This document shows positions 1 through 32,274 of a DNA stretch of 64,000 nucleotides, piece after piece. The first letter of the stretch is position 1. The number at the start of each line of letters is the position of its first letter. The notes beneath the pieces were generated by a model. The model ran no database searches and had not been told where the DNA came from. It saw only the letters and a list, made by a program, of their open reading frames with translations. The translations under genes were made by a program, and so were the position numbers. Source of the DNA: Pseudomonadales bacterium (GTDB lineage: Bacteria; Patescibacteriota; Microgenomatia; UBA1400; PJMF01); contig JACKFY010000002.1 in assembly GCA_020632235.1 (NCBI GenBank), forward strand, positions 96,894 through 160,893. Reading direction: 5' to 3'.

Positions 1-1295
1 AGATCATCTTTCTGTTGAGTGATAAGATCCTTTACTGCTTGAATAGTTTTACCACTAGCGGGAAATTTCACAGCTTCCCCTGTGCGTGGGTCAACTTGGA
101 TCTCCCATTTTAAGGTTTGGTCTGCCCCCGATGATGTTACTGTATACTGATAGAATAGTCTACCAGTATGTCCGTAGACATCCTCGGCGGAATCTAACAG
201 CATTTTCCCAAGTGTTGTACTTGGGCTTGGAAACGTTGATGCGTCCCATTCTGAATATGTGGCCCACCACTCGACTCTCTCTTGCATTTTTTCAAGGGAG
301 TAAATACGGTCAATCCAGTCTGGGACTTGACCAATTTGGTACTCGGTGATGGTGCCGTCAGTTGGGTCCACAACAATGACGGCGTCGGCGATCATACCAA
401 CGTTGCCAACGCTGTATCGCCACACAGTTCCGGTGTAAAAGGGATTACCCTCATTATCAATTTCTAGTACATCTAGGTTCTCAACCTCGCAACCACAATC
501 AAGCGTGAAGTTGAGGTAGACATGACGACCAAGGTCTTCCGACCAGCGAGCATCAGGGACAAACCGCAAGGCGTGCCCAGGAACAAATGTAGTTGTAGCA
601 TCCATTACTTTCGCGGGACGAATGAAGTAGCCTGGAAGGACTCCTCCCGCTTGTCGAAACCCCCGCCAGTTGGTAACACGGAGATCAGTGATATAGTATT
701 GATCTCCGTTGATCGTCTGCTCAAAGGTTTTCCCCACTTGAGCATAGGATCCAACATCGCCTGGCATCACACCTTGGGCTTCAAGGTTTGCCGCCGCTGG
801 TGAAATTTTGATTAAGTCATCATCAGAAGCGCTTGCTTCCAAATCAGATTGTGTAGCCTCTCTTGGTTCGAGGAGCGCTGCGATCTCGTCCCACTCACTA
901 TTATTGCCGAGTGACGCAGGACGAACAGCACAACTAGCAGTGACTATCCATACGATGAATAGTACAAATCCAATTGCTATTGTCAGTACAGATCCGTCTG
1001 CACTGAATTTGTGATTACCAAACCTATCGGTGTCGCCCCCCATCATTTCAGCGAGTAAAGTAGCGACAAGCGCGGATAAGAACACAATCAGTCCGCTGAT
1101 GAAAACCCCTCCACTACTCCAGTGAGCAAAGTGGGGCATTAGGGTGTAGAGAGCTAAGAGCTCCAGGAGCGCTCCAAGAATGAAGGCCGCAATACTGCGG
1201 CCAACTTTCAGTCCTCCTGTTACAGCACTGATGGCACCAGTTGTAACTAGTGCTGGGAGTCCGATAAGGAGAGAGTATAGTACCATAGTTGACAT
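1..1295 (-). CDS. hypothetical membrane protein, start in window, 3' end truncated by window edge (absent from ORF track because no stop falls in the window)
   Basis: Manual minus-strand translation from ATG 1295-1293 (AAAGGAG 6 nt upstream) gives an uninterrupted >430-codon frame MSTMVLYSLLIGLPALVTTGAISAVTGGLKVGRSIAAFILGALLELLALYTLMPHF... with 3-4 N-terminal hydrophobic helices then a soluble domain; frame verified at codons starting 1139, 839 and 35. Confidence 0.5.
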   Translation of the reverse strand, partial: MSTMVLYSLLIGLPALVTTGAISAVTGGLKVGRSIAAFILGALLELLALYTLMPHFAHWSSGGVFISGLIVFLSALVATLLAEMMGGDTDRFGNHKFSADGSVLTIAIGFVLFIVWIVTASCAVRPASLGNNSEWDEIAALLEPREATQSDLEASASDDDLIKISPAAANLEAQGVMPGDVGSYAQVGKTFEQTINGDQYYITDLRVTNWRGFRQAGGVLPGYFIRPAKVMDATTTFVPGHALRFVPDARWSEDLGRHVYLNFTLDCGCEVENLDVLEIDNEGNPFYTGTVWRYSVGNVGMIADAVIVVDPTDGTITEYQIGQVPDWIDRIYSLEKMQERVEWWATYSEWDASTFPSPSTTLGKMLLDSAEDVYGHTGRLFYQYTVTSSGADQTLKWEIQVDPRTGEAVKFPASGKTIQAVKDLITQQKDD

Positions 1296-3242: not shown

Positions 3243-5414
3243 TTATCGCTTCTTTGCGTACCGTTCTCGACTCACCTTGATCACTTTTTCTCTATTTTGA
3301 TTGCTACTACTAGCCAGCGGGAGAGTGTGGGCGGGGAAGGGTTTGGAGGCAATATTATCTATAGTGAGCTTATTTATCACCTGGTGTTTGCCAAGTGAAA
3401 CGAGGTCGTCGGTAGTGTACAAACCGCCAAATTCTTTTTGGAACACCTGCGCGTCATCTGCCCCCATCACAAAACTAATCATACTGCCGCAGTTGCCAAA
3501 GATAGCCTTCTGCACGTCTTCAGGGATTTGGGCAATAAACTGGTTGGCCAGGGTAAGATTGAGTCGGTACTTTCGTGCCTCCGAAAGGATTTTATTAAAC
3601 GACTCAGTCGCAAAGTTTTGAAACTCGTCTACATATAGATAAAAATCACTACGTTCCTCCTCTGGCATCTTGACTCTACCCATAGCAGCCAGCTGTATCT
3701 TGGTAATAAGCATTGCCCCAAGTAATGTAGCGTTATCTTCGCCTAGCCTGCCCTGCGAGAGATTAACGAGTAGGATTTTTTTGTTGTCCATCAGCTCTTC
3801 GATGCTAAACGAGCTTTTATGAGCGTTAACCACGCTACGAACGATAGGTGACGAGACAAACTGCCCCACTTTATTGAGAATGGAAGCAATAGACTCAGTC
3901 CGCTGACGCTCGTTTAATTTGTTGTACTCATCTACCCAAAATGACTTGAGGATCTCATCGTCAAGGTTCTCGATCATCTTGTCGCGAAACTTTTTATTTA
4001 CCAATAGCTCAACAATATCTGACATCCGGGCGCTTTCTACCGTGAGAAGGGTTAGAAGCGTGTTGCGCAAGATATACTCGAGTCGTGGTCCCCAAGAGTA
4101 GCCGTAGAGCTTATGAAAAATAGAGATAATCCCAGAGGCAATTAGCTCTCGATGCACGACATTCTCACCCTCAAATAGGTTTATCTTGACTGTTCTCTCG
4201 GGGTCACTGGGATTAAAGTACACCACGTCATTAATGCGATGTGACGGGATGTAATCAAGTAGCGTCTCGACAAGGTCTCCATGTGGGTCTATCACGCACA
4301 GCCCCTCACCTTTCTTGATGTCGTGTATAGCCATGTTGGCGAGTAGTGTAGACTTCCCGGTACCGGTTTTGCCGATTACGTACATATGACGTCTTCTATC
4401 AGGTCTTTTAATGCCATAGATAGTGGGTGAGTTTTTATATATGGTTTTGGCAAATGGATTGGTATTTTGTTTTGCCTCTTCTGTGCTGTTACTAGTAATA
4501 ATAGGCAGGTTTTCTGGCGGCTCACCCAGCAAGGACTTTCCCCAGGCTATATTGGGAATAGTAGCAAGGTTTTTATTAGGCAGATGCCAAATGGTCGCTA
4601 GCTCTGAAGTATTGAGAAAGTATGAGTGTCCAAGCGAAAATGTTCGCTCCACAACGTGTTTGCGTGCTTTTTTCTTAAAAAAAAGTGGTTTTTTAAGTGT
4701 AAACTGGTTACTTTCGCTGAGCGAAAAAACTTGAGATGAGGCATATATTGCCTCAAGTATGTATCGTGTTCTCTCGTGTGTTGGGGCACTGGTGAGTGCG
4801 CGTACGCTTGTTTTGAGGGTCTGTTTGCTCATTTTTTTTGCAATATGCGCTTGTTGAGTGCTTGATAGAGATGGTTTTTCATCAGCGTTCAGGGTTGCTG
4901 GGGTGTGGATGAGCCCACCTCCTTGGGAGACGAGCACTTGAATAAGGGCGGAGTCATGTTCTTGAAACTTTGAGAGGGTGGAGAGAAGAGCGCTGAGCGG
5001 ATCGGTGTCAGCAAACTGGTCGTATGTTTTGATGGGAAGTGAAGAGTCTCTTCCAAGGTCTAAAAAAGCAAATTCTGTAATGGGTTGTGGTTGGTAGTTT
5101 TGCTCAAGGCCAGATTGGTGAGCGGAAAATACATGGATATAATCATCTTGAGTTGTGTTAATTAGTATTTGAGGAAAACTTGCGCTGAGCGAGCTTTCAA
5201 TGTAGCTTTGTACTTTTTTTGGGCACACACAGTAAAATGATACTGTTTGGTTGCGCGCCAATATTTCGAATGAAATAGGATCACTTTTGCCTAGTAGTTT
5301 GTGGAAAAGAGCATCTTTGATGGTTGGAATTGTTTCAAATAGATACTCGGCGGCAGAGGCAAGAGACTCACTATCTCTACCTGTTCTCAGCTCTAATACT
5401 ATGGGGTTTTGCAT
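3243..5414 (-). CDS. TraD/TraG (VirD4)-like coupling-protein-family P-loop ATPase (HerA/FtsK superfamily), soluble (no TM helices)
   Basis: Walker A VIGKTGTGKSTL, Walker B YLYVDEFQNF, C-terminal TraG-D_C-like block SEARKYRLNLTLANQFIAQIPEDVQKAIFGNCGSMISF; N-terminal ~340 aa unassigned. Confidence 0.65.
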   Translation of the reverse strand: MQNPIVLELRTGRDSESLASAAEYLFETIPTIKDALFHKLLGKSDPISFEILARNQTVSFYCVCPKKVQSYIESSLSASFPQILINTTQDDYIHVFSAHQSGLEQNYQPQPITEFAFLDLGRDSSLPIKTYDQFADTDPLSALLSTLSKFQEHDSALIQVLVSQGGGLIHTPATLNADEKPSLSSTQQAHIAKKMSKQTLKTSVRALTSAPTHERTRYILEAIYASSQVFSLSESNQFTLKKPLFFKKKARKHVVERTFSLGHSYFLNTSELATIWHLPNKNLATIPNIAWGKSLLGEPPENLPIITSNSTEEAKQNTNPFAKTIYKNSPTIYGIKRPDRRRHMYVIGKTGTGKSTLLANMAIHDIKKGEGLCVIDPHGDLVETLLDYIPSHRINDVVYFNPSDPERTVKINLFEGENVVHRELIASGIISIFHKLYGYSWGPRLEYILRNTLLTLLTVESARMSDIVELLVNKKFRDKMIENLDDEILKSFWVDEYNKLNERQRTESIASILNKVGQFVSSPIVRSVVNAHKSSFSIEELMDNKKILLVNLSQGRLGEDNATLLGAMLITKIQLAAMGRVKMPEEERSDFYLYVDEFQNFATESFNKILSEARKYRLNLTLANQFIAQIPEDVQKAIFGNCGSMISFVMGADDAQVFQKEFGGLYTTDDLVSLGKHQVINKLTIDNIASKPFPAHTLPLASSSNQNREKVIKVSRERYAKKR

Positions 5415-11622: not shown

Positions 11623-13776
11623 CTATGTTGCTGGCGCCTCAGGCGACGGCGAGCTGGTGGTTTCTAGATCCTGCGTGGGGTCAGTCTCTTTGTCGCTAGC
11701 ATTTGGAGTTGCTTGCGCATCTATCTCTTCTGTTGTGGCAGGGTCACTGACTGCGTCTTCTGGGTTTTGCAGTGCTTCATTGAGTAAGCTTGGTTGTTCT
11801 ACCGTACTCTCGTCGGCAGCTTGTTCCTGATTTTGCGCTGCTGCCTGCTGTTCTGCCAGCGGCTGTACCTCTCCTAGTTCTTGCTGCACCTGCGCATACT
11901 CTGCGCTCGCAGGGTCAATGAGTGCGAGTGTTCTTTGATAGGCAATGACTGCATTTTGGTAGTCTCCGAGGTTGGCAAGTGAGATTGCAAGGTTATACTG
12001 TGCCTGTGGGTAGTCTGGCTTGAGGTCTGTGGCCTGCGCAAAGAGTTGCGCTGCTTGTGCATACTCTTCTGCGTTAAAGAAGATCGTCGCTAGGTTGTTG
12101 CGCAGAGCAGGGTTGGTGGGGTCAGTTTCTATAGCGGTAATGTAGCTTTGGACAGCAAATTGGTCTGCTCCCTCAATACTGCCGATGAGGTTGGCATATA
12201 TTTGTGCCAAAACTGTCCAATTTTGGGTATCAGATGGGTCCAATATTGTGGCAGACCGAGCTTCTCTGACGGCTTGCGTTATGAGCGTGTTGACCTGTTC
12301 CTGCTCTGCTTGGGTTATATCTTTGTTGCTTGATAGGGCAGCAGCAACCAGGATGTTGCTGGCAGCATACTCGCGCCTCATGTAGTCTAGGTACGGGTTT
12401 AGCTCTACTGCTTTTTGTTGATTGGTGTAGAGACCTACCCCGTCATCATTTTGTGCTGCTTTGGCAGACTCATTCATGTAAAAATGAGCGGCGTAAGCCC
12501 GCCCTGTTTGATAGATGAGCCAAGCCACCAGAAGTAATGGAATAACTCCTGCTGATAGAGAGAGTGCGCGCCTGAGAGTACTTTTAGACGACTGTGTTGT
12601 TTTTGTAGCATGTTGATCGCCATCAAGTAGTTTTACAGAGAATGGATGGAGTTGTAGTCGCCTAAACCTATCTTTTTCGGCTGCCGTATACAACATAATC
12701 ATCAAGGCTAATATGACCAGCAGAACAATATTACTTGGTAGAAACACCTGTGAGATAAACACGGTAGCTATGAGTAGCCCAAGAGCTTTCGAGGAGCTGC
12801 CGCTGTCACCCAGCTGCATAAGAAATGATCCGGCAAATAAAAGGTATGTGGTAACCCCCAAAACCCCCATGCTGACAATGAGTGTGAGCGGGGTGTTTGC
12901 AGCAAAGCCAAACGGTATGTTCCAGGCTGGACTTGTGTTTACAGTGACAGGTTTGTACTGCGTATACGCATTTGTGTACAAGCTACTACCGACACCAATT
13001 ACAGCAGTGCGAGGAGATCTGAGTGAGTCAAGCGCTATTGACCAACTGGTGCTAAAACTGGGGAGTATAACCTCAGCTGGTTTTCCAGGCAGAAGAGACC
13101 AAATATGCACACCTGCTCCTACTAACAAAATGGGCAGAAGCACGAGATGAAGTGTGCTTATTTTTTTTCTAAAGAAAGAAAGACTTATGACGCCAAGTAT
13201 TGAGAGCATAATAACTTCTAGAGATATCAGGGCAGATCCAGTCAGACTAAACACCAGGCTGGATGGGAGAGAGAGACCAAATAGAGCATTGAGTGCTTGA
13301 CTGGGTCCAAATCCAAGTAATTGCAGTGTGGCCAAGACACTTAGAATAGAAGAAGTAATAGCAAGGCAAGTGATAAGTGCTTCTGAAAGGTTTTTTTTAA
13401 TTAAGGATGGGCCGAGTACTCCGATGGCTGCCAGGCCGATGTAGACACCGCCCGCGCCAAGAATATTTTCTTGGGGATACGTAGTGGTAAAGAATGTACT
13501 TGCCGCTGCTGCTAGACCAAATAAAACAAGGGGAAGTGTAAAAGGCCCAGTAATGATCTCTACTGCTTTTATTTTGATTGAACGCAGTGTGTAGAGTGTT
13601 ACTGTGGCGAGTATAAAAAAGAAAAATGTATACAGCTTGGTAGTAGAAACAAAATTATCGGTGATGGGCAGCACAAACAAAATGATGGAGCACATCATGG
13701 CAAAAGAAAAAATAGTCATGAGTGATTGGAGGGCAGAGGCGTGTTTCATAGGCATCATACAGTGTAGTACATACAA
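11623..13776 (-). CDS. O-antigen ligase/polymerase-like (Wzy_C-type) polytopic membrane protein with C-terminal TPR repeats and acidic tail
   Basis: ~10 predicted TM helices over the first ~400 aa; C-terminal TPR-like repeats (AQIYANLIGSIEGADQFAVQSYITAIETDP..; AEEYAQAAQLFAQATDLKPDYPQAQYNLAISLANLGDYQNAVIAYQRTLALIDP); start uncertain (several Met near N-terminus). Confidence 0.55.
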   Translation of the reverse strand: MYVLHCMMPMKHASALQSLMTIFSFAMMCSIILFVLPITDNFVSTTKLYTFFFFILATVTLYTLRSIKIKAVEIITGPFTLPLVLFGLAAAASTFFTTTYPQENILGAGGVYIGLAAIGVLGPSLIKKNLSEALITCLAITSSILSVLATLQLLGFGPSQALNALFGLSLPSSLVFSLTGSALISLEVIMLSILGVISLSFFRKKISTLHLVLLPILLVGAGVHIWSLLPGKPAEVILPSFSTSWSIALDSLRSPRTAVIGVGSSLYTNAYTQYKPVTVNTSPAWNIPFGFAANTPLTLIVSMGVLGVTTYLLFAGSFLMQLGDSGSSSKALGLLIATVFISQVFLPSNIVLLVILALMIMLYTAAEKDRFRRLQLHPFSVKLLDGDQHATKTTQSSKSTLRRALSLSAGVIPLLLVAWLIYQTGRAYAAHFYMNESAKAAQNDDGVGLYTNQQKAVELNPYLDYMRREYAASNILVAAALSSNKDITQAEQEQVNTLITQAVREARSATILDPSDTQNWTVLAQIYANLIGSIEGADQFAVQSYITAIETDPTNPALRNNLATIFFNAEEYAQAAQLFAQATDLKPDYPQAQYNLAISLANLGDYQNAVIAYQRTLALIDPASAEYAQVQQELGEVQPLAEQQAAAQNQEQAADESTVEQPSLLNEALQNPEDAVSDPATTEEIDAQATPNASDKETDPTQDLETTSSPSPEAPAT

Positions 13777-13872
13777 AACGATGCTGTAAAGCCAGAGATT
13801 GTTGCCACTTGCTGATATTCTCGTACTTGCGATAGCAAAGCAGCTTTACTATGATGCAGAGAGGAAAAACTG

Positions 13873-14304
13873 ATGAAAAAAACTGGCTTTACCCTTATTG
13901 AAATACTTATTGTTGTGTCTATTATTGGTATCTTGGCGGCTCTTATTGTAGGAAACTTTTTGTCAGCCAGAGAAAGAGCAGCCGATGGAGCCATGAAAGG
14001 AGAGTTGGGTCAGCTGAAAACAGCTCTTCAGTTGTACTACAATGATAATCAGTCTTTTCCTTCCAGTCTTCCAGCAGAAGATCAGCAGTTTTCTGACAAT
14101 GGAACTACCTATATGGGTTCTATACCGAGAGTTGATTACTACGAGCAGCTAGACTCTGGTGATGATTTTCTTTCGTGTTCGGGGCTTGAACGCGCCGCTG
14201 ATGATCAAAAGGTGACACTAGAGAGATGTGATGTTGATGAATCTGTTGTTGAAACTTTGGCTTCTGAGGGAAGAGAAAATCCCTACTGTGTCTGTGCGGA
14301 TTAG
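13873..14304 (+). CDS. type IV pilin / pseudopilin (prepilin N-terminal cleavage-methylation domain)
   Basis: MKKTGFTLIEILIVVSIIGILAALIV class III signal with G|FTLIE cleavage/methylation site; Cys-rich C-terminus; divergent from the ligase-like gene (96-bp shared upstream region). Confidence 0.8.
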   Translation: MKKTGFTLIEILIVVSIIGILAALIVGNFLSARERAADGAMKGELGQLKTALQLYYNDNQSFPSSLPAEDQQFSDNGTTYMGSIPRVDYYEQLDSGDDFLSCSGLERAADDQKVTLERCDVDESVVETLASEGRENPYCVCAD

Positions 14305-17300
14305 TTGATAATCCACCAGTTAAAGGTGACGTCGTTTGATGATGGGTTATCAAAGCCAACGGTAAGTAGCGCCTCATTTTCTAGAGTTTCTGGATTATCT
14401 GTTTGTTGATTTTTGATATACAACACCTGATTGCCTGTACTCCCCACAGGCGTGATGTAGACGAGTGAGTCTTGCGTGAGGCTGCTAGCAATGATGGAGA
14501 GCTCTGTTTGATTACTCTTGATCGTTGCTTTGCCGGAAGAAGCGCTGGTTGCTAGGGGTTCTCCCTCTGGCTGCTGTGTGAAGTCTTGGGCGTTGAGCCC
14601 CAGCTTGCTAAATTGAGCCTCGCCGTCTGCATCAATGCTGGCAACAGCAGTCTGTGTTTCGTCAACAACTTCAAAGCTAGAATCTAGCACCTCGCCAGAG
14701 CTCGTAGCAACGCCGGCCACCTGTACGCGCAGTGGGTTTTCGTACGAGGTGGGTTGGAGTAAGTCTCCCAAGAGCGACCCTTCAACTGCAACGTCACCAG
14801 CAACTGTTAGGTTGCCATCAATTTTTGCCAGACCAGAATCATCAAGAGTGAGGAGTCCTGCCAGTAGCTCAATTGTACCCATTCCCTCTGGCTGAATGTG
14901 CAGGGTGTCTTGACTGTCTGCGGCCTGGTAGCTGAGTACTCCATCTGCCAGTGTGGTGCGCTCGCCAATAGCAATGCTACTTCCCACCCCCAGCATATCT
15001 GAAACATACGCAATACCATTTACATTAAAGTAGGTTGTGACGTACACAGCATCTGGCACAATGACGGTTTCAGTGGCACTGAGGTTTAAGTCCTCAAGAG
15101 AAAGATCTAATTCTGAGGTGCTCACTGGTGTGTAGCCCAGACCTTCTGCAACGCTGGCTGCCGCAGTGGCCGGGGCAGGGTTTTCCGGCTGGATACCACG
15201 AATGATGTCAATCAGGCTTTGCTCATTAAGTGATGAGGCAACTTTGTCATCAAGCCCATCGATGTTTTGTGCATATAATGTACCCGAGACAGTAGCGTTC
15301 ATAAACTCTGCTGTTTGGGCGTTTATCTCTCTCATTTGAGCAATTTCTGTTTCAAGGTAGGAAAGGCGGGCAGACTCTGCGGTGATACTTTCACTTGCTA
15401 AAGTACCCGATATGGTAGCTTCTTGTGCCAGTAATGTGCTCAAATTGGTTTCTTCTTGTACCACTAGGTTGTTGGTGGTCACTGTTTCTGCAGCTACCTT
15501 TCCGCTAAAGGTAGCGTTGCCTTGATTATCTATTTGAGCTACTACACTACCGTTACTATTTTTCACGGCTAGATTATTGATTACAGCATCTTCCGGCAAA
15601 CTTTGGCGTTGTTGTTCAGTATTGATAATCCTTTTAATCATGGACTCGATAGACTCGCCTTTGATAGAAAGAGCAGAGGTGTTCAAACTTTGCACCTCTG
15701 CCGTTTTGGTTACAACCAGCTCTTTAGTGTGTACGAGTCCGGCAGTCATATTCGCAATAAAGGCTTTAGAAGCACCAATGACTGCAGAGAGAGGAGAGCT
15801 GACACCTGCTGGCGTGGCTGTGTACGTGCCGTTTTGTTTTGCAATAATGACTGTGCCGTCTGGTGCGAGTGAGATCTTTTCTAGCTTAGTCAGTTTTGAC
15901 TTGTTGGACATAATAAGTGATTGTTGTTCTTGCACGGCATTCACCAGTACTGCAGTGAGTTGTTTGTACTTCACACCTTCTATTTGGCCATTGGCGTATG
16001 TTGCTAGTAGTGGATCAATTTGTTCTACCTCTTCTGCAACGAAACCAAGATCATGCATGCCATCTGCCTTCCAGTCAAATACAACTGGTCTCAGTTGCAT
16101 TACTTCATTCAGACCCAGGTCAAGGCTTTCAATGTTTTCTTTGTACCTTTGGCTGGAAGAACAGGTGCTTAAGGCATTGAGAGTATTTCTACATACGTCT
16201 GTAGCACCATTAAAAGATAATACACCAAGAAACAGGCCGCCTGTCAATGCGCCATTGCCATTAACATGAAGTGCTTGTGTTGGTGTTACGCCAATTCCTA
16301 ATTGGCCAGAACTATTGATTTCTAGAGCAGTGTTGCTACCTGGAGTTGTGCCGGTGCCAATAAAGAACGAGTCGTCGTTGTCGTTTCCCGCATCATCTTG
16401 CACACCCATCCAAAAGTCAGTATCTGTTGAGGTAGAAGTATCAAATATAATAGAAGAATCTGCTTTATTGAGTGTTAAATCACCACTAAGAGTTCCCCCA
16501 CTTAATGCTAAATATCTGCCGTCGAGCTGAGTTCTCGTGAGTAAGTCACCACCTGCATTATTATCAAGATAGCCTTCTGTACCCAGGTCTGAGTAGGCAG
16601 AAAATGAGTTGTCACTTACAGAGCCACCACTTATAGTGAGGTCATTTGCCACATATGCATCGGCGATTGCACTGCCTTGCCAGGTACCAGTACCAATAGT
16701 CCCCAGTGTCGTAATGCTTGTTTGTCCTGCATAGGTAGAAGCTATTCTCAAACCACTCGCACTCTTTGAAAGCGTAGAGCCATCTAGTTCAAGAGAGAAG
16801 ACAGTGCCAGACTCTTCTATGCCAAGACCATCTGCAGAGTAGGTGGTATTAGTATCATTACTGCCCGTAGCACTAATGGTAATAGTGTCTGTTGTAGCAT
16901 TGGTGGTGATAGTCACATTAGAGCCTGCTGCAAGAGTAAGAGTGTCATTGTTTTGATCAGATACGACGTTTGATTGTCCTGAGACTGCTATGTTTTTAAA
17001 GATGTTTTGTTGTGAACCTCTATCACTGTTGGTAACAGTAAAAGTAGTACCTTCACCAGCACTACCTGATACTGATATACCCGTACCTGCTGCAACTGAC
17101 CCAGCATAGTTGCCAGTGGTGTCAGTACCAAGAGCTACTGCATCAGGTTGGATAACAACACTGCCTAGTCCTGTTCCTGCTACATCACCTGCAATATCAA
17201 TAGCAGCTTCTAGTGTGCTTTCTGTAGTGGCATCAATACTATCAAGACCATTGAGGGTACCTGTTCCTGCAAGGTTGATGGTAGTAACAGTGTCTAGTAC

Positions 17301-20243
17301 TGTCTCTAGACTAAAGGTAGTGCCTGTAAGATCTAGATCACTCCCCGCAGAGTAGGTAGTATCACTATCAGTACCAGTGATAGTGAGGGTGTCACCAGTG
17401 ATACTGGTAGATATACTGCCTGCACCAGCAACAGTGAGAGTATCTGTAGTTGTGTCTGCACTGGTACTACCTGTATCTGCAGTGAATGTCTCCCACAAGT
17501 TCTGTGCGCCAGGAATACTAACCCAATCTACACCACTACCAGTAGAAGAGAGTACTTGACCACTTGTACCTACATCTCCATTGATGTCAGTGAGTGTGCC
17601 ATTGAGCTCTAGATCACTGTCCAAATCTACAGCACCTGTGAATCTACCAGTGCCATTGACATCGAGTTTGTAGGTAGGGGTGTCATCATTTATTCCTACA
17701 TTGCCATTTAAGTCTATTCTCATAAGTTCGTCATTGGCACTTGCATATGAGTTGCGAAAGATATACCCATGCTGGGCATCCAAAACCATATTGGTTCCTA
17801 TTCTTTGAAGAGAAAAGGTATTGCCTGTTATATAAAGCGCACCAGCTTGATTCGTGCCTCTTAACGTATTTCCTATAAAATCAAATCCATTGCTCGAAGC
17901 ATTTCGGTACTGAAAACTGTCTGATGTTAATGCAACTGCTGTTGGGCTTCCAGAAAAAAACTCTTTCTCCGGATATCCAGAACTTAATCGGATCGAATTG
18001 CGCGCATTTAAATGTAAGTACGTTGAAGAACCTGAATCATAAATTCTGCTAGAGCTACTCCCAAACTTTAAAGTTCCATCGCTCTTTATGTGTAAATCAG
18101 CTGTTGGATCAGTTACCCCAATTCCAACGTTGCCACTATTCGAGTTGTAAATATTATTCCCGTTTGCTGTCCAAAGACTTCCACCTCCGACTGCGTTATC
18201 TACATAGTCTTTTGTAGTCACAACCGTTCCTATATCACCGCTGACTGTTGATTGCGAGCGGATTTTGCCGTTCACGTCGAGTTTTGAGGCTGGGGTGGTG
18301 GTACCAATCCCCACACTCCCACTCGTATCAATCCTCATCCTCTCACTGCCATTTGTTTCGAAGGCTAGTGAGTTGTTGTCATTAGTACCAAGTGTGGCCA
18401 GGCCGCCAAAGCTATTGCCGTCTTGTTTGTAATATGTTGGGTCTAGAGTTGTACTAATACTGGACCATGCAGTGCCGGTGCCGGTAGATGAAAGGATTTG
18501 CCCACTGGTACCTGCTGATGAAGTGTTATCTATAAATGCGCCAGTTACTTCCAGATCTCCCGCAATGGTGCTGTTGCTATTAAGATTTATCTCTCCTGTG
18601 CCATCAGGACTCAAGTCAATATCGCCATTACTGCCAGCACCAGTTTCAAGCAATAATGACTGAGCGGTAATAGAAAACGTGCCAGAGTCAGATCTGATAG
18701 AGGGGGAGACTTCACCTAGTACTACCTGACCGTTGTCGTTCATGGTGAGAATGGTATTGACAGTGGCAGACTCGCTGGCGTTGATGGGGAACCCTTGGAT
18801 AGTCTCGGCGTTGAGGGCGTAGGCTACTGCTTTGATGGGCTGACGAGGGGAGAGGGTTTCGCTGGCAACAGTGACCTCCAGGTACACACCGGCGTTTTCG
18901 GTAAAGACATCTTCTGCTATTTCGCTGCCACACTCGTCACCCAGTCCTGTTGAAAATATGCCATCTTGGTCGGGGGTAACACTACACGCGCCAGAATCCC
19001 ACAGCTGCGTGCCTCCACTCGGGGAATCAAAGAGCTTAAACTGCATGTTGGTGGCTGTAGTGATGGGGGTTTGAGCAGTATCAGTCAGCCTACCCTGAAA
19101 TGAGAGCGAGCGGGTGGGGCGGGTGGGGGTGGAGGGGTAGGCGAGGGAGGGTATTGTTTCTCTAACGAGTTGCTGGTACCCAAAGAAGCCCATGAGCCCC
19201 AATAGGAACACAATAATACCAAAGTTGACAAAGCTAAGCCCCCGAGAAAACACATTTTTCTTGGTATCTGAGTGCAACTCAGCAATTCGTTTTTCAATTA
19301 CCAAGTTTGTTTTTTCCTGTTCTTCCCAGTTTTTTTGCACTTCAGCGGAGTAAAGTGCATCAGGAGGGACAACTTCTGGAGTGTCTTTTTTTTCAGTATG
19401 ATTACTAGCTTGATAGTTGTCCTCAGCCTCTTGTTGCTCTATTTTCTGGATCGTATTTTTTGGTCCAAGAGTAGGCCAATTATTTTCTTGTACTCTTTGT
19501 GTATCAAAAGAGTCTTTAGTAGGTACATATGTACTCAGTTGACTGGTAGCTATGTTTGGTTTTTGTTCACCAGAATAAAAACCATAGTGTTCATCTTGAC
19601 CATTTTTAAAAGAGGTCAACCAACCAAATGAATCTTTGGATATGTTGTTGTCTCTCATCCAGTAGGCAAACTGGGAAATGCTTGTTAATTTTCGTGTGAT
19701 GGTGTTCTCAGAAAGTCCCTTGCTTTTCTCATTTTTGAGGAATTTTGATAGTTTGGTTCTTGTGATAACCGGAGTGTTCGTCTGAGCTGGCGAAAAAGAT
19801 AAAAACTGCTTGATATCACTTTTATAATTTTTAATAGTTCCCTGCGAGCAGCCGGAGTCTTTGAGTGCTAAAAGGTACTCCTCCAGATACATCTCTCCCC
19901 AAGTATTAGGAAGTTGTGCTAAAAATCGTTGCAGAATGCTCCTCAACCTAACCGAGATCCCCCTATTTTTCATTTTTTCTTCGGATATATGGATTAGCTG
20001 TTTTGGGGAGTTTTTATCAGTAAGCTCTGTAGATGCGTCAAGGAGTACCTGAGAGATAACCTCTTGGTCTTCAGCGCTCATCAATTGCTGTGAGTAAAAG
20101 CGAGCTGCTTTTGCGTGCACAACTTGGAAAATGGGGGTATGGGTAGGCATGATTATTGGTGTAGTAAAAACGTGTAATCCAGGCTTAATAGACCGTATTG
20201 CAGATATGTAACTAGGATATCTTGATTCAAGAGAGGTAGTCAA
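14301..20243 (-). CDS. giant (1980 aa) single-pass surface protein: cytoplasmic integrase-N SAM-like domain, TM helix, phage tail-fibre-like repeat region, internal S74 (endosialidase intramolecular chaperone)-like domain, ~500-aa C-terminal extension
   Basis: Residues ~100-210 resemble XerC/D N-terminal SAM-like core-binding domain (EEYLLALKDSGCSQGTIKNYKSDIKQFLSF); TM ~334-357 (FVNFGIIVFLLGLMGFFGY); repeats GSVGIGTTTPASKLDVNGKIRS / GNVGINDDTPTYKLDVNGTGRF / GNVGIGVTDPTADLHIKS; S74-like block SSQRYKENIESLDLGLNEVMQLRPVVFDWKADGMHDLGFVAEEVEQIDPLLATYANGQIEGVKYKQLTAVLVNAVQEQ at residues ~1363-1470 (nt ~15836-16157); possible later start at MSAEDQ (nt 20081). Confidence 0.75.
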   Translation of the reverse strand: MTTSLESRYPSYISAIRSIKPGLHVFTTPIIMPTHTPIFQVVHAKAARFYSQQLMSAEDQEVISQVLLDASTELTDKNSPKQLIHISEEKMKNRGISVRLRSILQRFLAQLPNTWGEMYLEEYLLALKDSGCSQGTIKNYKSDIKQFLSFSPAQTNTPVITRTKLSKFLKNEKSKGLSENTITRKLTSISQFAYWMRDNNISKDSFGWLTSFKNGQDEHYGFYSGEQKPNIATSQLSTYVPTKDSFDTQRVQENNWPTLGPKNTIQKIEQQEAEDNYQASNHTEKKDTPEVVPPDALYSAEVQKNWEEQEKTNLVIEKRIAELHSDTKKNVFSRGLSFVNFGIIVFLLGLMGFFGYQQLVRETIPSLAYPSTPTRPTRSLSFQGRLTDTAQTPITTATNMQFKLFDSPSGGTQLWDSGACSVTPDQDGIFSTGLGDECGSEIAEDVFTENAGVYLEVTVASETLSPRQPIKAVAYALNAETIQGFPINASESATVNTILTMNDNGQVVLGEVSPSIRSDSGTFSITAQSLLLETGAGSNGDIDLSPDGTGEINLNSNSTIAGDLEVTGAFIDNTSSAGTSGQILSSTGTGTAWSSISTTLDPTYYKQDGNSFGGLATLGTNDNNSLAFETNGSERMRIDTSGSVGIGTTTPASKLDVNGKIRSQSTVSGDIGTVVTTKDYVDNAVGGGSLWTANGNNIYNSNSGNVGIGVTDPTADLHIKSDGTLKFGSSSSRIYDSGSSTYLHLNARNSIRLSSGYPEKEFFSGSPTAVALTSDSFQYRNASSNGFDFIGNTLRGTNQAGALYITGNTFSLQRIGTNMVLDAQHGYIFRNSYASANDELMRIDLNGNVGINDDTPTYKLDVNGTGRFTGAVDLDSDLELNGTLTDINGDVGTSGQVLSSTGSGVDWVSIPGAQNLWETFTADTGSTSADTTTDTLTVAGAGSISTSITGDTLTITGTDSDTTYSAGSDLDLTGTTFSLETVLDTVTTINLAGTGTLNGLDSIDATTESTLEAAIDIAGDVAGTGLGSVVIQPDAVALGTDTTGNYAGSVAAGTGISVSGSAGEGTTFTVTNSDRGSQQNIFKNIAVSGQSNVVSDQNNDTLTLAAGSNVTITTNATTDTITISATGSNDTNTTYSADGLGIEESGTVFSLELDGSTLSKSASGLRIASTYAGQTSITTLGTIGTGTWQGSAIADAYVANDLTISGGSVSDNSFSAYSDLGTEGYLDNNAGGDLLTRTQLDGRYLALSGGTLSGDLTLNKADSSIIFDTSTSTDTDFWMGVQDDAGNDNDDSFFIGTGTTPGSNTALEINSSGQLGIGVTPTQALHVNGNGALTGGLFLGVLSFNGATDVCRNTLNALSTCSSSQRYKENIESLDLGLNEVMQLRPVVFDWKADGMHDLGFVAEEVEQIDPLLATYANGQIEGVKYKQLTAVLVNAVQEQQSLIMSNKSKLTKLEKISLAPDGTVIIAKQNGTYTATPAGVSSPLSAVIGASKAFIANMTAGLVHTKELVVTKTAEVQSLNTSALSIKGESIESMIKRIINTEQQRQSLPEDAVINNLAVKNSNGSVVAQIDNQGNATFSGKVAAETVTTNNLVVQEETNLSTLLAQEATISGTLASESITAESARLSYLETEIAQMREINAQTAEFMNATVSGTLYAQNIDGLDDKVASSLNEQSLIDIIRGIQPENPAPATAAASVAEGLGYTPVSTSELDLSLEDLNLSATETVIVPDAVYVTTYFNVNGIAYVSDMLGVGSSIAIGERTTLADGVLSYQAADSQDTLHIQPEGMGTIELLAGLLTLDDSGLAKIDGNLTVAGDVAVEGSLLGDLLQPTSYENPLRVQVAGVATSSGEVLDSSFEVVDETQTAVASIDADGEAQFSKLGLNAQDFTQQPEGEPLATSASSGKATIKSNQTELSIIASSLTQDSLVYITPVGSTGNQVLYIKNQQTDNPETLENEALLTVGFDNPSSNDVTFNWWIIN

Positions 20244-28533: not shown

Positions 28534-29201
28534 AGAGATTGCTCTTGCTTTTCTACTTCGCTGATGACGAGTGAGAGCTGTGTTTTCATTTCGTCTCTGG
28601 TTATTTCTTCATCGGTAATCATTTTTTCTAGGGTGGCCAACTTTGGCATGATGTATTGCTCTACAAACACCACCTCTTTATTTTTTGCATCTTCTCCATT
28701 TTGGGCACGTTGTTCTTCCATTATTGCCTTGTGAGCATGTGTTACTGCACGCTCATGTTCTCTTTTGGTAAATAAAAACAGAATGAAAAGAAGCGGGAGT
28801 AAGAGTAGTGGGGCGAAGTCAAGTAGCGTGTTGATGGGGTGTTGGGTGAGTAGGAGTAATCCAGCGCCGAGTACGGCGATGAGTCCAGGCAAAAGGGGAA
28901 CAAAAAATGCCACTAAAAAGGTGAAGCTAGTCAAAAGGAGGCTTAAAAGTGATGGATAGTCTTTCAGCGAGCTTAAAGCAATAAGCATGATGACCACCAA
29001 ACACAACATCTCAAACGGTCCATAAGACACAGCACTTTTTGATTTTCGCTGCCGAAACTTCATCAAAACGACACACACAGATCCCACCGCAATTAACTGT
29101 GGTGAGTAGCTGGCTAGCGTGGCATGCATAGACCAGATATATGCGCCCAACACCACACAGGTCATGAAGATGGCGTACTTGGCAGATGACATAGTACACA
29201 T
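28530..29201 (-). CDS. hypothetical membrane protein with cytoplasmic coiled-coil C-terminus; heads the surface-protein gene string
   Basis: 4-5 hydrophobic helices (LIAVGSVCVVLM, LCLVVIMLIALSSL, FLVAFFVPLLPGLIAVLGAGLLLL..), C-terminal charged heptad-like region. Confidence 0.45.
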   Translation of the reverse strand: MCTMSSAKYAIFMTCVVLGAYIWSMHATLASYSPQLIAVGSVCVVLMKFRQRKSKSAVSYGPFEMLCLVVIMLIALSSLKDYPSLLSLLLTSFTFLVAFFVPLLPGLIAVLGAGLLLLTQHPINTLLDFAPLLLLPLLFILFLFTKREHERAVTHAHKAIMEEQRAQNGEDAKNKEVVFVEQYIMPKLATLEKMITDEEITRDEMKTQLSLVISEVEKQEQSL

Positions 29202-29217
29202 GATACACTATCTTGCT

Positions 29218-32200
29218 ATGAAACACTCGTATGACCCAGCAACACTAGAGAAGAGATGGCAGAAATTCTGGGAAGAGCAGCAGTTGTTTCAAGACACAGC
29301 GATAGTGCCGGAGGGGAAAAAGAAAGAGTACTTGTTGTTTGCCTTTGCCTACCCCTCAGGCTCTGGTTTACATGTGGGTCATGTTGAGAGTAAAGCCGCG
29401 CTTGATATCTTGGCGCGTTACTACCGAATGCAGGGAAAGCATGTATTTTTCCCGGTGGGGTGGGATGCGTTTGGCTTGCCGGCAGAAAACTATGCTATTA
29501 AGACAGGGGTGCATCCTGCCCAAACGACTGATGACGCCATTACTACCTTTCAAAAGCAGATCAAGAGAATTGGCATTTCGTATGACTGGAAAAATGAGCT
29601 TCGCACCAGTGACCCCACCTACTATCGCTGGACGCAGTGGATATTCTTAGAGCTTTTCAAAGCAGGTCTCGCCTATAAAAAATCAGCACCAGTCAACTGG
29701 TGCCCGTCATGCAACACCGTGCTGGCCAACGAGCAGGTAGTAAATGGTGAGTGTGAACGCTGTGGTGCTAGTGTTATTCAAAAAGAGATGAATCAATGGT
29801 TTTTTAAGATCACCCAGTATCAAGACGAGCTTATTTCTGGACTCGATCAGGTGGACTGGCCAGCACCAACCAAGCAACAACAACTCAACTGGATAGGCAA
29901 GAGTGAGGGGCTTTCCATCAGTTTTCCCTTGATGACTGCACCCACTAACCACTCCTGTAGTACAAATAGTTTATATGACCACCCATATCAACACACACTA
30001 CAAATTGCTCGAGATTTTTACTTGAGCTACTTGCAGGGCAAGCAGGTTTTTTCTCCTCTTTTAGATGATGTTGTGTTGCTCACCCGATCGTTTTGGAACC
30101 ACTTACTAGAAAAAGATAGAAAACAATCACAAGTATTGTTTCGTTTGTACGCCTTGCCCAAAGTGTACAATCTGCTTTCTGTTGCTGAGGGGACGCTACA
30201 ATACTCGAAAGGAAATGACACAAAAAAACATGTGGAGTTTTGGAGTTGGCAAGCAGAAATTGAAGGGGTGAGAGTAGGAGTAACGGTTCGGAGTGTTAAT
30301 AACACCCACAAACACTTGTATTCAATAACCTGGCTTAGTGAAACGGAAAACTTTTCTAATAAACAAAAAACCGCGCCGTCTCCAGCAGATCAGAGTCTGC
30401 TGCGTCAGGATTGTAAAAACAGTGTCCTTCAGCGCGATAATTTCGTTAATCATACCACGATAATGGAGTATTTGTCAATGTTGTTATCAAAGACTCCTAT
30501 TATAACTCTTAAAGCCTGGACCAAGTTTTGGGAAACAGTGTATGGTGTTACATTTCTTGTTATTGCCCCAGAAACGTTTGAACAGCTTGGGTTGTCTGAG
30601 TATCTTGCGCAAGATCTCCAGCAAAAAGTAGCTGACTACATCAACACAGCAAAGAATAAAACAGAGGAAGAGCGAGCTGTTGATGAAAAGAACAAGACGG
30701 GTGTGGACACTGGTTTGAAGGCTCAAAACCCAGTGACGGGGGAATTTATCCCGCTCTTTATAGCAGACTATGTACTTGAGGGGGTTGGTACAGGAGTAGT
30801 CATGGGCGTGCCTGCCCACGACCAAAGAGACTTTGCCTTTGCCAAAAAGTACAACTTGCCGATCAAGCAAGTAGTATCGTACGCAGACAAAGCTTTAAAT
30901 ATTCAAGTAAAAAACGGCGAGCGAGCAGCCGAGCAAGAAGGAATCCTGATAAACTCTGGCCAGTTTGATGGTCAAGAAGCCTGGGGCGAGGGCAAACAAA
31001 ACATGGCAGACTGGCTGGTAAAAGAAGGGCGTGCAGAGTGGAATACTACCTACAAACTTCGTGACTGGCTCATTTCCAGACAGCGCTATTGGGGTACGCC
31101 CATCCCGATTGTGTACGATCCAGACGGGAAGCCTCACCCGGTGAAAGAAGAGCACTTGCCTTGGACGCTTCCCACCGACGTTGATTTTAAGCCTACCGGT
31201 GAGTCTCCGCTGCGGTCTTCGCGCGAACTACAAGCGCGAGTCGAGCGGTTGTATGGTACAGGTTGGGTACCAGAATATGACACAATGGACACATTTGTGG
31301 ACTCAAGTTGGTACTATCTTCGGTATACATCTATTGATGACAACACACACGCATTTGATGCAAAAAAGGTTCAATCTCTGCTTCCTGTTGATTTGTACAT
31401 GATTGGCCCCGAGCACATCGTGCTTCACTTGCTCTACTCACGGTTTTTTACCAAGTTTTTACGCGATCAAGGTTTGTTAGATTTTGATGAGCCGTTTGTA
31501 AAGATGCGCCATCAAGGCATGATCTTGGGTCCTGATGGCAAAAAGATGAGTAAAAGCAAAGGTAACGTTATCAATCCCGACGACGTGGTAGACAAGTTTG
31601 GCGCCGACACCCTGCGTATGTACGAGATGTTTATGGGGCCGATAGACGCTGACAAACCATGGAGCACTACCTCGGTAGCTGGCGTGTATCGTTTCTTGAG
31701 CAGGTATAACTCGCTGGTGCGACAGGCGTTAGATTACAACTCCAGCACTAGCACAAAAAAGACACTGCCCAGCTCTTCCTTACAAAAAAAATTACACCAG
31801 GTAGGACTAAAAGTTTCGAGTGATATCCCCGAGATGCGGTTTAATACTGCTATTGCTGCCTTGATGGAGTTGGTTAATGAATGGCAAACAGAGGGGCAAG
31901 AGTTGTCACTCGGCGATACTGTGCGAGCAGCACTACTGATTGCGCCATTTGCGCCATTTTTAGCAGAAGAGCTCTACAGTCTATTACCAGCAGGACAAAG
32001 AAAGTGCAAGAGTGTGCACCTCGAAGATTGGCCAGAGTTCTCGCCAGAGCTAGCAAAAGAAGATGCTGTTATTATAGCAGCGCAGGTCAATGGCAAAGTA
32101 CGATCAGAGCTACTGGTCGATAGCTCTGCGATAGACAATCAAACTCTTATAGAAGAAAAAGCTCTAATGGATACAAAAGTTACCCATTGGATTGATGGCA

Positions 32201-32274
32201 AAACAGTTTTAAAAGTTATTTACGTACCAGGTAAAATCATTAATTTTGTACTCAATACAAATGAGGGGGCGTAG
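29218..32274 (+). CDS. leuS: leucine--tRNA ligase with ~195-aa lineage-specific insertion between catalytic core and CP1 editing domain
   Basis: start set at MKHSYDPATLEKRWQ (track ORF starts 29119); HIGH motif GLHVGHVESKAALD, KMSKS motif KMSKSKGNVI, CP1 remnants TFLVIAPE and GTGVVMGVPAHDQRDF; total ~1018 aa. Confidence 0.9.
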   Translation: MKHSYDPATLEKRWQKFWEEQQLFQDTAIVPEGKKKEYLLFAFAYPSGSGLHVGHVESKAALDILARYYRMQGKHVFFPVGWDAFGLPAENYAIKTGVHPAQTTDDAITTFQKQIKRIGISYDWKNELRTSDPTYYRWTQWIFLELFKAGLAYKKSAPVNWCPSCNTVLANEQVVNGECERCGASVIQKEMNQWFFKITQYQDELISGLDQVDWPAPTKQQQLNWIGKSEGLSISFPLMTAPTNHSCSTNSLYDHPYQHTLQIARDFYLSYLQGKQVFSPLLDDVVLLTRSFWNHLLEKDRKQSQVLFRLYALPKVYNLLSVAEGTLQYSKGNDTKKHVEFWSWQAEIEGVRVGVTVRSVNNTHKHLYSITWLSETENFSNKQKTAPSPADQSLLRQDCKNSVLQRDNFVNHTTIMEYLSMLLSKTPIITLKAWTKFWETVYGVTFLVIAPETFEQLGLSEYLAQDLQQKVADYINTAKNKTEEERAVDEKNKTGVDTGLKAQNPVTGEFIPLFIADYVLEGVGTGVVMGVPAHDQRDFAFAKKYNLPIKQVVSYADKALNIQVKNGERAAEQEGILINSGQFDGQEAWGEGKQNMADWLVKEGRAEWNTTYKLRDWLISRQRYWGTPIPIVYDPDGKPHPVKEEHLPWTLPTDVDFKPTGESPLRSSRELQARVERLYGTGWVPEYDTMDTFVDSSWYYLRYTSIDDNTHAFDAKKVQSLLPVDLYMIGPEHIVLHLLYSRFFTKFLRDQGLLDFDEPFVKMRHQGMILGPDGKKMSKSKGNVINPDDVVDKFGADTLRMYEMFMGPIDADKPWSTTSVAGVYRFLSRYNSLVRQALDYNSSTSTKKTLPSSSLQKKLHQVGLKVSSDIPEMRFNTAIAALMELVNEWQTEGQELSLGDTVRAALLIAPFAPFLAEELYSLLPAGQRKCKSVHLEDWPEFSPELAKEDAVIIAAQVNGKVRSELLVDSSAIDNQTLIEEKALMDTKVTHWIDGKTVLKVIYVPGKIINFVLNTNEGA

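Follow-up and report, generated by a model that had tools for sequence, protein, structure and literature searches.

A His-less WaaL-fold/TPR membrane protein of CPR bacteria encoded head-to-head with a type IV prepilin

The 64-kb window (the whole stretch of DNA analysed here) encodes a polytopic membrane protein with C-terminal TPR repeats, the gene of which lies head-to-head with that of a type IV prepilin. At the level of fold the protein belongs to the O-antigen ligase/Wzy_C superfamily, having the polytopic WaaL membrane fold, and it is one of a large family, so far uncharacterised, that occurs only in CPR bacteria. We propose, at a probability of roughly 0.45, that it is a His-less variant of the WaaL/Wzy fold with a role in handling the lipid-linked glycans of the envelope. 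The first-pass annotation had read the gene pair as a pilin O-glycosylation module. Of this, the head-to-head placement of a WaaL-fold/TPR protein and a genuine prepilin stands, and is conserved across the lineage, whereas the assignment to enzymes of the PglL/TfpO kind does not.

CPR bacteria (Patescibacteria) are thought to rely on type IV pili and giant adhesins for attachment to host cells. For CPR, glycosylation of pilins is a prediction to which no enzyme has yet been matched (PMC11623550). Recognition of a WaaL fold with an apparently rebuilt active site provides a concrete candidate for the attachment of glycans to the CPR envelope or to surface proteins, and is a case in which the WaaL scaffold persists without the His regarded as indispensable in all members characterised so far.

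The membrane protein and its family

The ORF of the membrane protein was recovered as first annotated (Table 1), with the true start probably at the internal ATG (Met10), judging from the database copy (P0001, NCBI MCA9369827.1) and from where 17 homologues begin. Residue numbers given here are those of the resulting 708-aa form. Entry MCA9369827.1 is annotated only as 'tetratricopeptide repeat protein', as are the family members listed with source names.

Table 1. Features of the membrane protein/pilin region (window positions).
Feature	Position	Strand	Remarks
WaaL-fold/TPR membrane protein, entire ORF	11623..13776	-	717 aa (TTG 13776); 708 aa from ATG 13749
Polytopic membrane domain, WaaL O-antigen-ligase fold, 10 TM helices	12670..13749	-	residues 1-360
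Large loop, predicted extracytoplasmic	12895..13095	-	residues 219-285; most conserved family residues here
Extra 11th TM helix (predicted)	12505..12579	-	residues 391-415; from AF2 helices and positive-inside count
TPR domain, predicted extracytoplasmic	11815..12441	-	residues about 437-645
Disordered, acidic, Ser/Thr/Pro-rich C-terminal tail	11626..11814	-	residues 646-708; pLDDT below 50
Divergent intergenic spacer	13777..13872	.	promoter-like hexamers 13827-13855 (+), 13790-13761 (-)
Type IV prepilin, class III signal MKKTG/FTLIE	13873..14304	+	143 aa; four Cys; ends ...NPYCVCAD
Giant surface protein	14301..20243	-	1980 aa; convergent with pilin, 4-bp overlap of gene ends

The membrane domain is followed by a Lys/Arg-rich cytoplasmic linker and then by the eleventh TM helix, which in the model would place the TPR domain outside the cell (N-terminus in, TPR out). 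The C-terminal TPRs reported at first pass are confirmed as tandem 34-residue helix-turn-helix repeats, matched at residues about 500-650 by TPR_1 (E 1e-9), TPR_17 (4e-9) and others. Searches with Pfam and NCBIfam gave TPR matches only, and no direct family assignment; the NCBIfam scores of these repeats are all far under the cut-offs, and the similarity is generic, with MamA, OGT and APC subunits scoring equally well. Homology of the TPR domain to PilF/PilW was considered and rejected, the similarity being of the kind common to TPRs. Within the C-terminal tail, the alignment shows a short conserved motif, PS[IL][IL]xQNLE.

The structural matches to WaaL have modest Foldseek TM-scores (0.44-0.47). 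Homology to WaaL at the level of sequence is not demonstrable (profile-profile probability 0.35%, hhalign against a 27-sequence WaaL profile), and no PDB sequence was matched by phmmer or by profile search. The earlier description of the protein as 'Wzy_C-like' is not supported at sequence level, as it has no match to Wzy_C (PF04932) at E<=0.1. Only two of 18 homologues, P0017 (28.8 bits) and P0018 (26.3 bits), match this profile, both below its gathering threshold of 31.7 bits; these two are 27-31% identical to the query and supply a remote sequence link to Wzy_C. The PglL_A motif (PF15864), a mark of PglL, was found neither in the query (Pfam, E<=0.1) nor in the 18 homologues (E<=0.01). Two other identities were rejected: RodA/FtsW (SEDS) are absent among the structural matches listed, and among GT-C enzymes PglB appears only at a Foldseek E of 1.5.

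Clustered at 50% identity, the family has at least 4,300 groups: a threshold of E<=1e-3 yields 4323 representatives, and one of E<=1e-30 yields 557. Nearly every one of the 150 members listed is about 700 aa long, and the architecture at this length is a WaaL-fold membrane domain, an extra TM helix and a predicted extracytoplasmic TPR domain. A literature search for this combination in CPR returned nothing relevant. In Paceibacterota, Zambryskibacteria and Saccharibacteria, relatives some 800 aa long have MurJ (PF03023, E 1e-47 to 1e-56) directly downstream, and at a fourth locus MurJ lies 3 kb off. The MurJ link was seen only in this distant subfamily (24-27% identity) and not in the orthologue group; no MurJ was found in the 64-kb window or in any of 43 orthologous loci.

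Lost and conserved residues

Residue roles for WaaL-type enzymes were drawn from three studies (PMC3643930, PMC12800693, PMC9829042). According to these, WaaL and PglL share a conserved catalytic His (H338 in E. coli WaaL, H349 in N. meningitidis PglL; H324 in PglS and H286 in TfpM), and its mutation inactivates TfpM (H286A) and PglS (H324A); two arginines are also highlighted, E. coli WaaL R215 (N. meningitidis PglL R224) and R288 (PglL R298). In the membrane protein the His position is occupied by Ala284, and among 154 relatives by Ser in 70, Ala in 32, Arg in 15 and Thr in 14. No conserved His was found anywhere in the membrane domain of the family. The register of this position (N-x9-G-x2-G) was set by hhalign and, since the hhalign probability was so low, cross-checked via Pfam profile coordinates: the second Gly of the motif falls at profile position 144 in EcWaaL, P0017 and P0018. 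Despite its low probability, the hhalign register agrees with the manual motif alignment.

At the two arginine positions no conserved Arg was found, the alignment at R288 being weak. The region aligned with R215 (residues 166-176, VFSLTGSALIS) is without a basic residue, as it is in P0017 and P0018, while the equivalent of R288 falls, at low confidence, on F232, with conserved basic residues nearby (K/R244, R/K247). The distant 800-aa relatives retain an Arg three residues ahead of an SW motif (EVRPSW). With the catalytic His gone and no conserved Arg detected at either position, any catalysis by this protein would have to depart from canonical WaaL chemistry.

Conserved residues of the large loop comprise W236, D/E241, K/R244, R/K247, G252-x-G254, K/R266, P267, N271, W276 and N285; Ala284, at the position of the catalytic His, lies in the loop as well. 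The conserved polar residues predicted to face outward are K38, D/E241, K/R244, R/K247, K/R266, N271 and N285, of which N271 is invariant and K38 and K/R266 are kept in 152-153 of the 154 relatives.

The prepilin and the divergent spacer

The pilin ORF, too, is as first described. Its product (N-terminus MKKTG/FTLIEILIVVSIIGILAALIV) has a class III signal (the processing and methylation motif G/F-x-x-x-E, then a hydrophobic helix), the only such motif across the 64-kb window, and its identity as a prepilin is borne out by matches to N_methyl (PF07963, E 1.2e-6) and TIGR02532 (E 3.7e-7); the N-terminus resembles GspG (E 1.8e-13) and PilA (E 1.3e-10). By orthology it is 'pilin 3', the distal member of a conserved operon of three pilins. 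Its C-terminus (...CVCAD) lacks a terminal Ser/Thr. The same is true of every pilin 3 orthologue listed, the last residues being C-[AESG]-[DYRK] or similar. In relatives the pilin facing the membrane-protein gene is the Cys-rich pilin 1, unlike the pilin 3 of the window, and pilin 2 carries a Ser/Thr/Pro-rich tail (SSNxTLPTP), a typical kind of O-glycosylation site. Among the pilins, pilin 2 is the most plausible acceptor. Remnants of pilin 1 or pilin 2 were not found in the window, where all 75 tblastn matches hit one pilin gene.

The two starts are separated by 96 bp, in agreement with the first-pass annotation, or by 123 bp if the membrane protein begins at the internal ATG. The plus-strand hexamers sit 18 nt before the pilin ATG; a promoter scan of the spacer gave 6 sites against 3.8 +/- 2.4 in shuffled sequence, which is not above expectation.

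Gene order across the lineage

Orthologous loci were gathered by a search with 13 closer full-length sequences. Of 39 species-level genomes, 35 have divergent pilin genes, usually three, upstream of the orthologue, and in 33 the distance is no more than 600 bp, so that the head-to-head arrangement is conserved across the lineage and reflects more than chance adjacency. At one locus (L038) the pilins and the membrane-protein gene have been inverted in one piece, and at four others (L014, L017, L025, L028) the orthologue has no adjacent pilin. In the Microgenomates/Pacebacteria lineage the membrane-protein gene is fixed in one block. At one side of it stands the gene of a giant surface protein, which converges with pilins 3, 2 and 1 (in that order, pilin 1 being nearest to the membrane protein); the WaaL-fold/TPR gene is divergent from the pilins and converges in turn with Obg, M23 peptidase and Rho. 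The window carries a reduced block, with pilin 3 alone. The giant protein, also conserved in the block, combines a Phage_int_SAM_1 domain at the N-terminus with a single hydrophobic segment, an extended fibre-like region and, at residues 1363-1411, a Peptidase_S74 chaperone domain.

The housekeeping neighbours Obg, M23 peptidase and Rho are as conserved as the pilins (41 of 41 loci), and adjacency alone is therefore no proof of a functional link. The connection to the pilin that had been drawn from adjacency is weakened by this equal synteny, and also by the different facing pilin in relatives, the absence of pilin 2 here and the association of distant relatives with MurJ. Where gene order is frozen to this degree, a pilin glycosylation module is not to be inferred from adjacency alone.

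Elsewhere the window encodes a WecG/TagA-family glycosyltransferase (48377-49273), of a type whose substrates are Und-PP-linked sugars, as well as Mur ligase-family (MurD-like) and MreB genes. Beside the membrane-protein gene itself, no pathway for a glycan donor was recognised.

Possible function

If the membrane protein handles lipid-linked envelope glycans, as we propose, it would act on the external side of the cytoplasmic membrane. Its WaaL-type cavity would receive a polyprenyl-(pyro)phosphate-linked glycan supplied by a flippase of the MurJ/Wzx type, and an extracytoplasmic acceptor recruited by the TPR domain would then take on the glycan, by transfer or by polymerisation. As acceptors, the pilins or the giant fibre protein would be plausible, a pilin being only one candidate.

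Three alternatives were weighed. That the protein is a dedicated pilin O-oligosaccharyltransferase, passing a lipid-linked glycan to pilin Ser/Thr residues, capturing the pilin with its TPRs and co-regulated with it through the shared spacer, is unlikely: the divergent pilins at 35 of 39 loci, the intact inversion in L038, the SSNxTLPTP tail of the relatives' pilin 2 and the predicted outward-facing TPR domain would fit such a role, but the catalytic His, a conserved Arg at the WaaL positions and the Wzy_C and PglL_A signatures were all not found, and the window lacks pilins 1 and 2 and retains a pilin ending in CVCAD. The four orthologues with no pilin beside them, the equal synteny of Obg, M23 and Rho, and the pairing of distant relatives with MurJ instead of pilins also speak against it. 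Residues that no characterised WaaL-fold transferase can do without were not found here, and the protein may therefore not be catalytic; in that case it could be a WaaL-fold pseudo-enzyme serving in assembly or anchoring, with the external TPRs as a scaffold for the pilus or the giant fibre in the manner of PilF/PilW/Tgl. We consider this role doubtful, given that the TPR similarity is generic and far under the NCBIfam cut-offs, and that the strong conservation of polar residues in an outward-facing loop (N271, K38, K/R266) suggests a ligand-binding or active site, not a mere anchor.

An enzyme of peptidoglycan or another cell-wall polymer, i.e. a Wzy-like polymerase or ligase working on MurJ-flipped Und-PP precursors, with its position beside the pilins simply an inherited gene order, is rather improbable. 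It would account for the MurJ genes immediately downstream in three other CPR lineages and for a neighbourhood that is frozen as a whole, housekeeping genes included (Obg in 41 of 41 loci), and the WecG/TagA, MurD-like and MreB genes of the window are in keeping with it, as is the loss of the WaaL His, which Wzy polymerases are not known to possess either; against this, no MurJ was found in the window or in the 43 orthologous loci, and some coupling to the pilins is suggested because the spacer is short and divergent and the pair was inverted as a unit in L038. A further, speculative extension of the envelope-glycan reading, which we consider unlikely, is that the His-less CPR proteins form a new class of extracytoplasmic glycan transferases with an active site of their own (K38, D/E241, K/R244, R/K247, K/R266, N271) and a TPR module that selects the acceptor, recruited in Microgenomates to glycosylate the pilins and/or the giant surface fibre with which these episymbionts would contact hosts.

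Comparison with known systems

The CPR protein has no detectable sequence homology to WaaL of Cupriavidus metallidurans (7TPG/7TPJ) or E. coli. It has Ala284 in place of H338 of the E. coli enzyme, no conserved Arg was found in its family at positions aligned with R215 and R288 (the latter weakly aligned), and it adds an extra TM helix, a predicted external TPR domain and an acidic tail. To our knowledge, CPR bacteria are generally held to have neither an outer membrane nor LPS.

The pilin-modifying enzymes PglL, PglS, TfpO (PilO) and TfpM all have a detectable Wzy_C domain and the conserved His, whereas the CPR protein has neither, nor does it have the PglL_A motif of PglL (PMC3643930). The genes of TfpO and TfpM lie directly downstream of the pilin gene in the same orientation, and the partner pilin ends in Ser/Thr (PMC9829042); the CPR pair is divergent, and its pilin ends in ...CVCAD. 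A TPR domain such as that of the CPR protein is not described for PglL, PglS, TfpO or TfpM in the papers cited. Since the His is lost, no conserved Arg was found and the pilin does not end in Ser/Thr, the membrane protein is, on sequence grounds, not a member of the PglL, TfpO, TfpM or PglS families, and the PglL/TfpO-type O-oligosaccharyltransferase first suggested is not retained.

In diderm bacteria, PilF, PilW and Tgl are lipoproteins of the outer membrane and serve as pilots for the PilQ secretin. The TPRs of the CPR protein are instead fused to a protein of 11 TM helices, and no secretin turned up in those window ORFs that were scanned. The Wzy polymerases of O-antigen and ECA are related to WaaL (Wzy_C spans both) and have as substrates, outside the membrane, repeat units linked to Und-PP; so far as we know, they do not depend on the WaaL His. 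WsaB and WsfB, the S-layer O-oligosaccharyltransferases of Gram-positives, reportedly carry a recognisable Wzy_C domain, and are enzymes of the Wzy_C type that glycosylate surface proteins in single-membrane bacteria.

The gene pair and its setting

The first-pass annotation described a polytopic TPR protein encoded divergently from a type IV pilin, and the ORFs, the TPR matches and the prepilin signal were all found. The small ORF is a genuine prepilin, as judged from its signal, MKKTG/FTLIE, followed by a hydrophobic helix, and from its matches to PF07963 (E 1.2e-6), TIGR02532 and the N-termini of GspG (E 1.8e-13) and PilA (E 1.3e-10). No other class III signal occurs anywhere in the 64-kb window. 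The 96 bp said to separate the two starts is correct for the ORFs as called. The deposited protein, P0001 (NCBI MCA9369827.1/MCB9801875.1, named 'tetratricopeptide repeat protein'), is identical to the long ORF and has 708 aa, starting at Met10 (ATG 13749), in agreement with the N-termini of 17 aligned homologues, so that the true spacer is probably 123 bp.

The setting is typical for a CPR bacterium of the Microgenomates group, with genes for Rho, a LysM/M23 peptidase, Obg, LeuRS, ComEA, ComEC, a TrwB-like coupling protein, MreB, a Mur ligase-family (MurD-like) protein and a WecG/TagA glycosyltransferase. Public records place the source organism in 'Candidatus Woesebacteria' and, wrongly, in 'Pseudomonadales'. 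The title 'Pseudomonadales bacterium' is borne by many MAG records with the CPR synteny block (L013, L016, L018, L020-L027 and others), apparently a systematic error in the taxonomy given to Pacebacteria/Microgenomates genomes. The coupling protein gene also occurs in the syntenic Woesebacteria locus of P0014, a homologue of the membrane protein. The Pfam matches to the LeuRS ORF leave residues ~263-463 uncovered, a sign of either a sizeable insertion or a start called too far upstream.

Features of the window and of related loci (residues in the numbering of the 708-aa protein)
Feature	Position	Strand	Remarks
TrwB/VirD4-like type IV secretion coupling protein	3243-5414	-	TrwB_AAD_bind, DUF87, TraG-D_C
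Membrane protein ORF	11623-13776	-	717 codons, TTG start
Outer loop	residues 219-285		67 residues, after TM7; predicted topology
Cytoplasmic linker	residues 358-390		Lys/Arg-rich, before eleventh helix; predicted topology
TPR domain	residues ~437-645		outside cell; predicted topology
Disordered acidic tail	11626-11814	-	outside cell; predicted topology
Prepilin ORF	13873-14304	+	143 codons
Giant protein	14301-20243	-	1980 aa; gene end overlaps pilin stop by 4 bp
Leucyl-tRNA synthetase ORF	29119-32274	+	1051 aa vs 840 aa in related locus L003
WecG/TagA/CpsF-family glycosyltransferase	48377-49273	+	E 4.6e-35
Pilin 1, conserved operon of relatives			~200-260 aa; 10-16 Cys
Pilin 2, conserved operon of relatives			~160-180 aa; Ser/Thr/Pro-rich C-terminal tail, e.g. 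SSNxTLPTP
Pilin 3, conserved operon of relatives			~125-152 aa; typical end Y-x-x-C-[AES]-[DY]
WaaL-fold/TPR gene and MurJ pair	L053:9432-11147, L054:5339-7009, L057:9474-11147		conserved across three CPR groups

The membrane protein family and its putative active site

The Wzy_C/PglL profile search proposed in the first-pass annotation came back negative: neither Wzy_C nor PglL_A (Pfam and NCBIfam) matched the membrane protein, which hit TPR families alone (residues ~500-650), and no PDB sequence matched either the protein (phmmer) or the family profile. Wzy_C was touched by two of 18 homologues, the two most distant (P0017 and P0018, 27-31% identity), at 28.8 and 26.3 bits, both below the gathering threshold of 31.7 bits. 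By sequence, the protein is not O-antigen-ligase-like. Applied to the predicted helices, a positive-inside count places the N-terminus inside and yields 11 TM helices, a topology in which the TPR domain and the acidic tail would be extracytoplasmic. The tail holds a short motif, PS[IL][IL]xQNLE, kept in most of 18 aligned homologues, outside which it is not alignable among them. A profile run against 1.84 billion cluster representatives recovered 4323 proteins with E<=1e-3, of which 557 reach E<=1e-30; nearly all among the best 150 of the 4323 are ~700 aa long, and these 150 therefore probably have the same architecture. Loci from species-representative genomes are labelled CPR or unclassified MAG, besides the many mislabelled 'Pseudomonadales'.

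In E. coli WaaL, R215, R288 and H338 are functionally important, with R224, R298 and H349 as PglL counterparts (PMC3643930), and mutation of the equivalent His inactivates the OTases PglS (H324A; PMC12800693) and TfpM (H286A; PMC9829042). With the register taken from E. coli K-12 WaaL as aligned to 7TPG, the WaaL His sits in the motif H-N-[DE]-x-x-E-x4-G-x2-G; the query shows equal spacing, N285-x9-G295-x2-G298, with Ala284 at the His position. A profile-profile alignment, itself statistically insignificant (probability 0.35%), reproduced this register, and the second Gly is Wzy_C profile position 144 (Pfam coordinates) in E. coli WaaL, P0017 and P0018; two independent checks thus confirm it. 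Among 154 aligned family representatives, most have Ser (70), Ala (32), Arg (15) or Thr (14) at position 284, and the membrane domain contains no conserved His at all. The R215-aligned region lacks a basic residue, and the R288 equivalent is apparently F232, in a low-confidence alignment. The same 154 representatives have an invariant N271, K38 in 152 and K/R266 in 153; W236, W276, D/E241, K/R244, R/K247 and N285 are also conserved in the family. This conserved polar set differs from that of WaaL and lies in parts predicted to face outward.

Gene order and the pilins

Forty-eight loci were taken from species-representative genomes, of which 43 are orthologous (identity 28-44%). Across these the arrangement is remarkably constant: the giant protein gene upstream on the strand of the membrane protein, three opposite-strand pilins, the membrane protein, then Obg, M23 peptidase and Rho downstream on the opposite strand. 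Obg adjoins the membrane protein in 41/41 loci. Divergent pilins were found, with a slightly relaxed motif, at 35/39 loci having enough upstream sequence, the nearest lying <=600 bp away in 33 of the 35, and ~30 loci have the full set. The three-pilin operon lies upstream of the match in L010-L052 (e.g. L016:6466-7717, L019:6421-7648). The window pilin is orthologous to pilin 3 along its full length (identity 36-44%), and pilins 1 and 2 left no trace within the window; in most relatives it is pilin 1 that faces the membrane protein. Since the window retains pilin 3 alone, its head-to-head pair is a reduced, derived state in which pilins 1 and 2 have been lost.

In the giant protein, a Phage_int_SAM_1 (recombinase N-terminal) domain occupies the N-terminus, a single hydrophobic segment lies near residue 345, a long fibre-like region is rich in Ser, Thr and Gly, and a Peptidase_S74 intramolecular-chaperone domain sits mid-protein (1363-1411); the protein may act at the cell surface as a fibre or adhesin that cleaves itself. 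In most of the genomes whose upstream sequence is long enough, a relative of the giant protein (1,400 to >2,900 aa) lies beside the locus. Toxin-antitoxin (PIN) genes and a ~376-aa unannotated gene, the latter seen at L049 and again at L017, interrupt the order of pilins, membrane protein and giant gene at varying points (L037:1395-1992, L049:5689-6819, L001:3552-4176); small mobile insertions, it appears, do not break up the block. At L038 (583-11416) the divergent pair of pilins and WaaL-fold/TPR gene has been flipped as a whole with respect to the Rho-M23-Obg block and the giant gene, the sole rearrangement observed among the 43 loci.

Five loci hold ~800-aa relatives (identity 24-27%), which have SW...GxGP...KP..N..FW motifs in common with the query family and likewise lack the His. 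At L053 (Paceibacterota), L054 (Zambryskibacteria) and L057 (Saccharibacteria), MurJ, the lipid II flippase (PF03023, E 1e-47 to 1e-56), is directly downstream on the same strand, followed by LepA; at L055 it is 3 kb off, and at L056 the contig ends. No MurJ occurs in the window or the orthologous loci. Because MurJ adjoins these distant relatives, the wider family is tied to lipid-linked envelope precursors rather than pili.

Proposed function of the membrane protein

Whether the pilins and the membrane protein form a functional unit is a matter on which gene order speaks both ways. The short conserved intergenic distance and the one-piece inversion at L038 favour it, while the equal synteny of the housekeeping genes, the persistence of the membrane protein at loci that lack pilins or have them displaced (L014, L017, L025, L028) and the P0017 and P0018 loci, which have no pilin neighbours, disfavour it; at the Woesebacteria locus of P0014, too, no pilin intervenes and the giant gene directly abuts the membrane protein. 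The gene pair itself is as described, and its interpretation as a pilin O-glycosylation module has only partial support: the WaaL fold and the conserved divergent pilins stand, but the His is replaced, housekeeping genes are equally syntenic and some orthologues are pilin-less, and a specific pilin OTase is unlikely. A non-catalytic scaffold, credible because the canonical catalytic residues are all gone (the R288 position in a low-confidence alignment), is about as improbable. Somewhat less probable still, though likewise credible, is a cell-wall role with purely inherited pilin adjacency.

The best reading of the membrane protein is an envelope enzyme with a divergent WaaL/Wzy fold that lacks the histidine, in view of its fold, the conserved polar residues clustered in its outward-facing parts, the link to MurJ and the window's WecG/TagA gene. 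WecG/TagA-type enzymes use Und-PP-linked sugars as substrates, and the presence of this gene, near those for MreB, the Mur ligase-family protein and a PEGA-domain protein, suggests that the genome makes a lipid-linked wall glycopolymer. We infer the donor, chemistry and acceptor as follows: the enzyme would take up a polyprenyl-phosphate-linked glycan at the outer face of the membrane and transfer it to an acceptor bound by the external TPR domain, with the giant fibre protein and the pilins, above all the pilin 2 of relatives, as candidates. The proteins described here make up a large unannotated CPR family that combines the WaaL fold with a remodelled active site and fused TPRs; less probably, they may form a novel class of transferases that act on glycans or glycosylate proteins.
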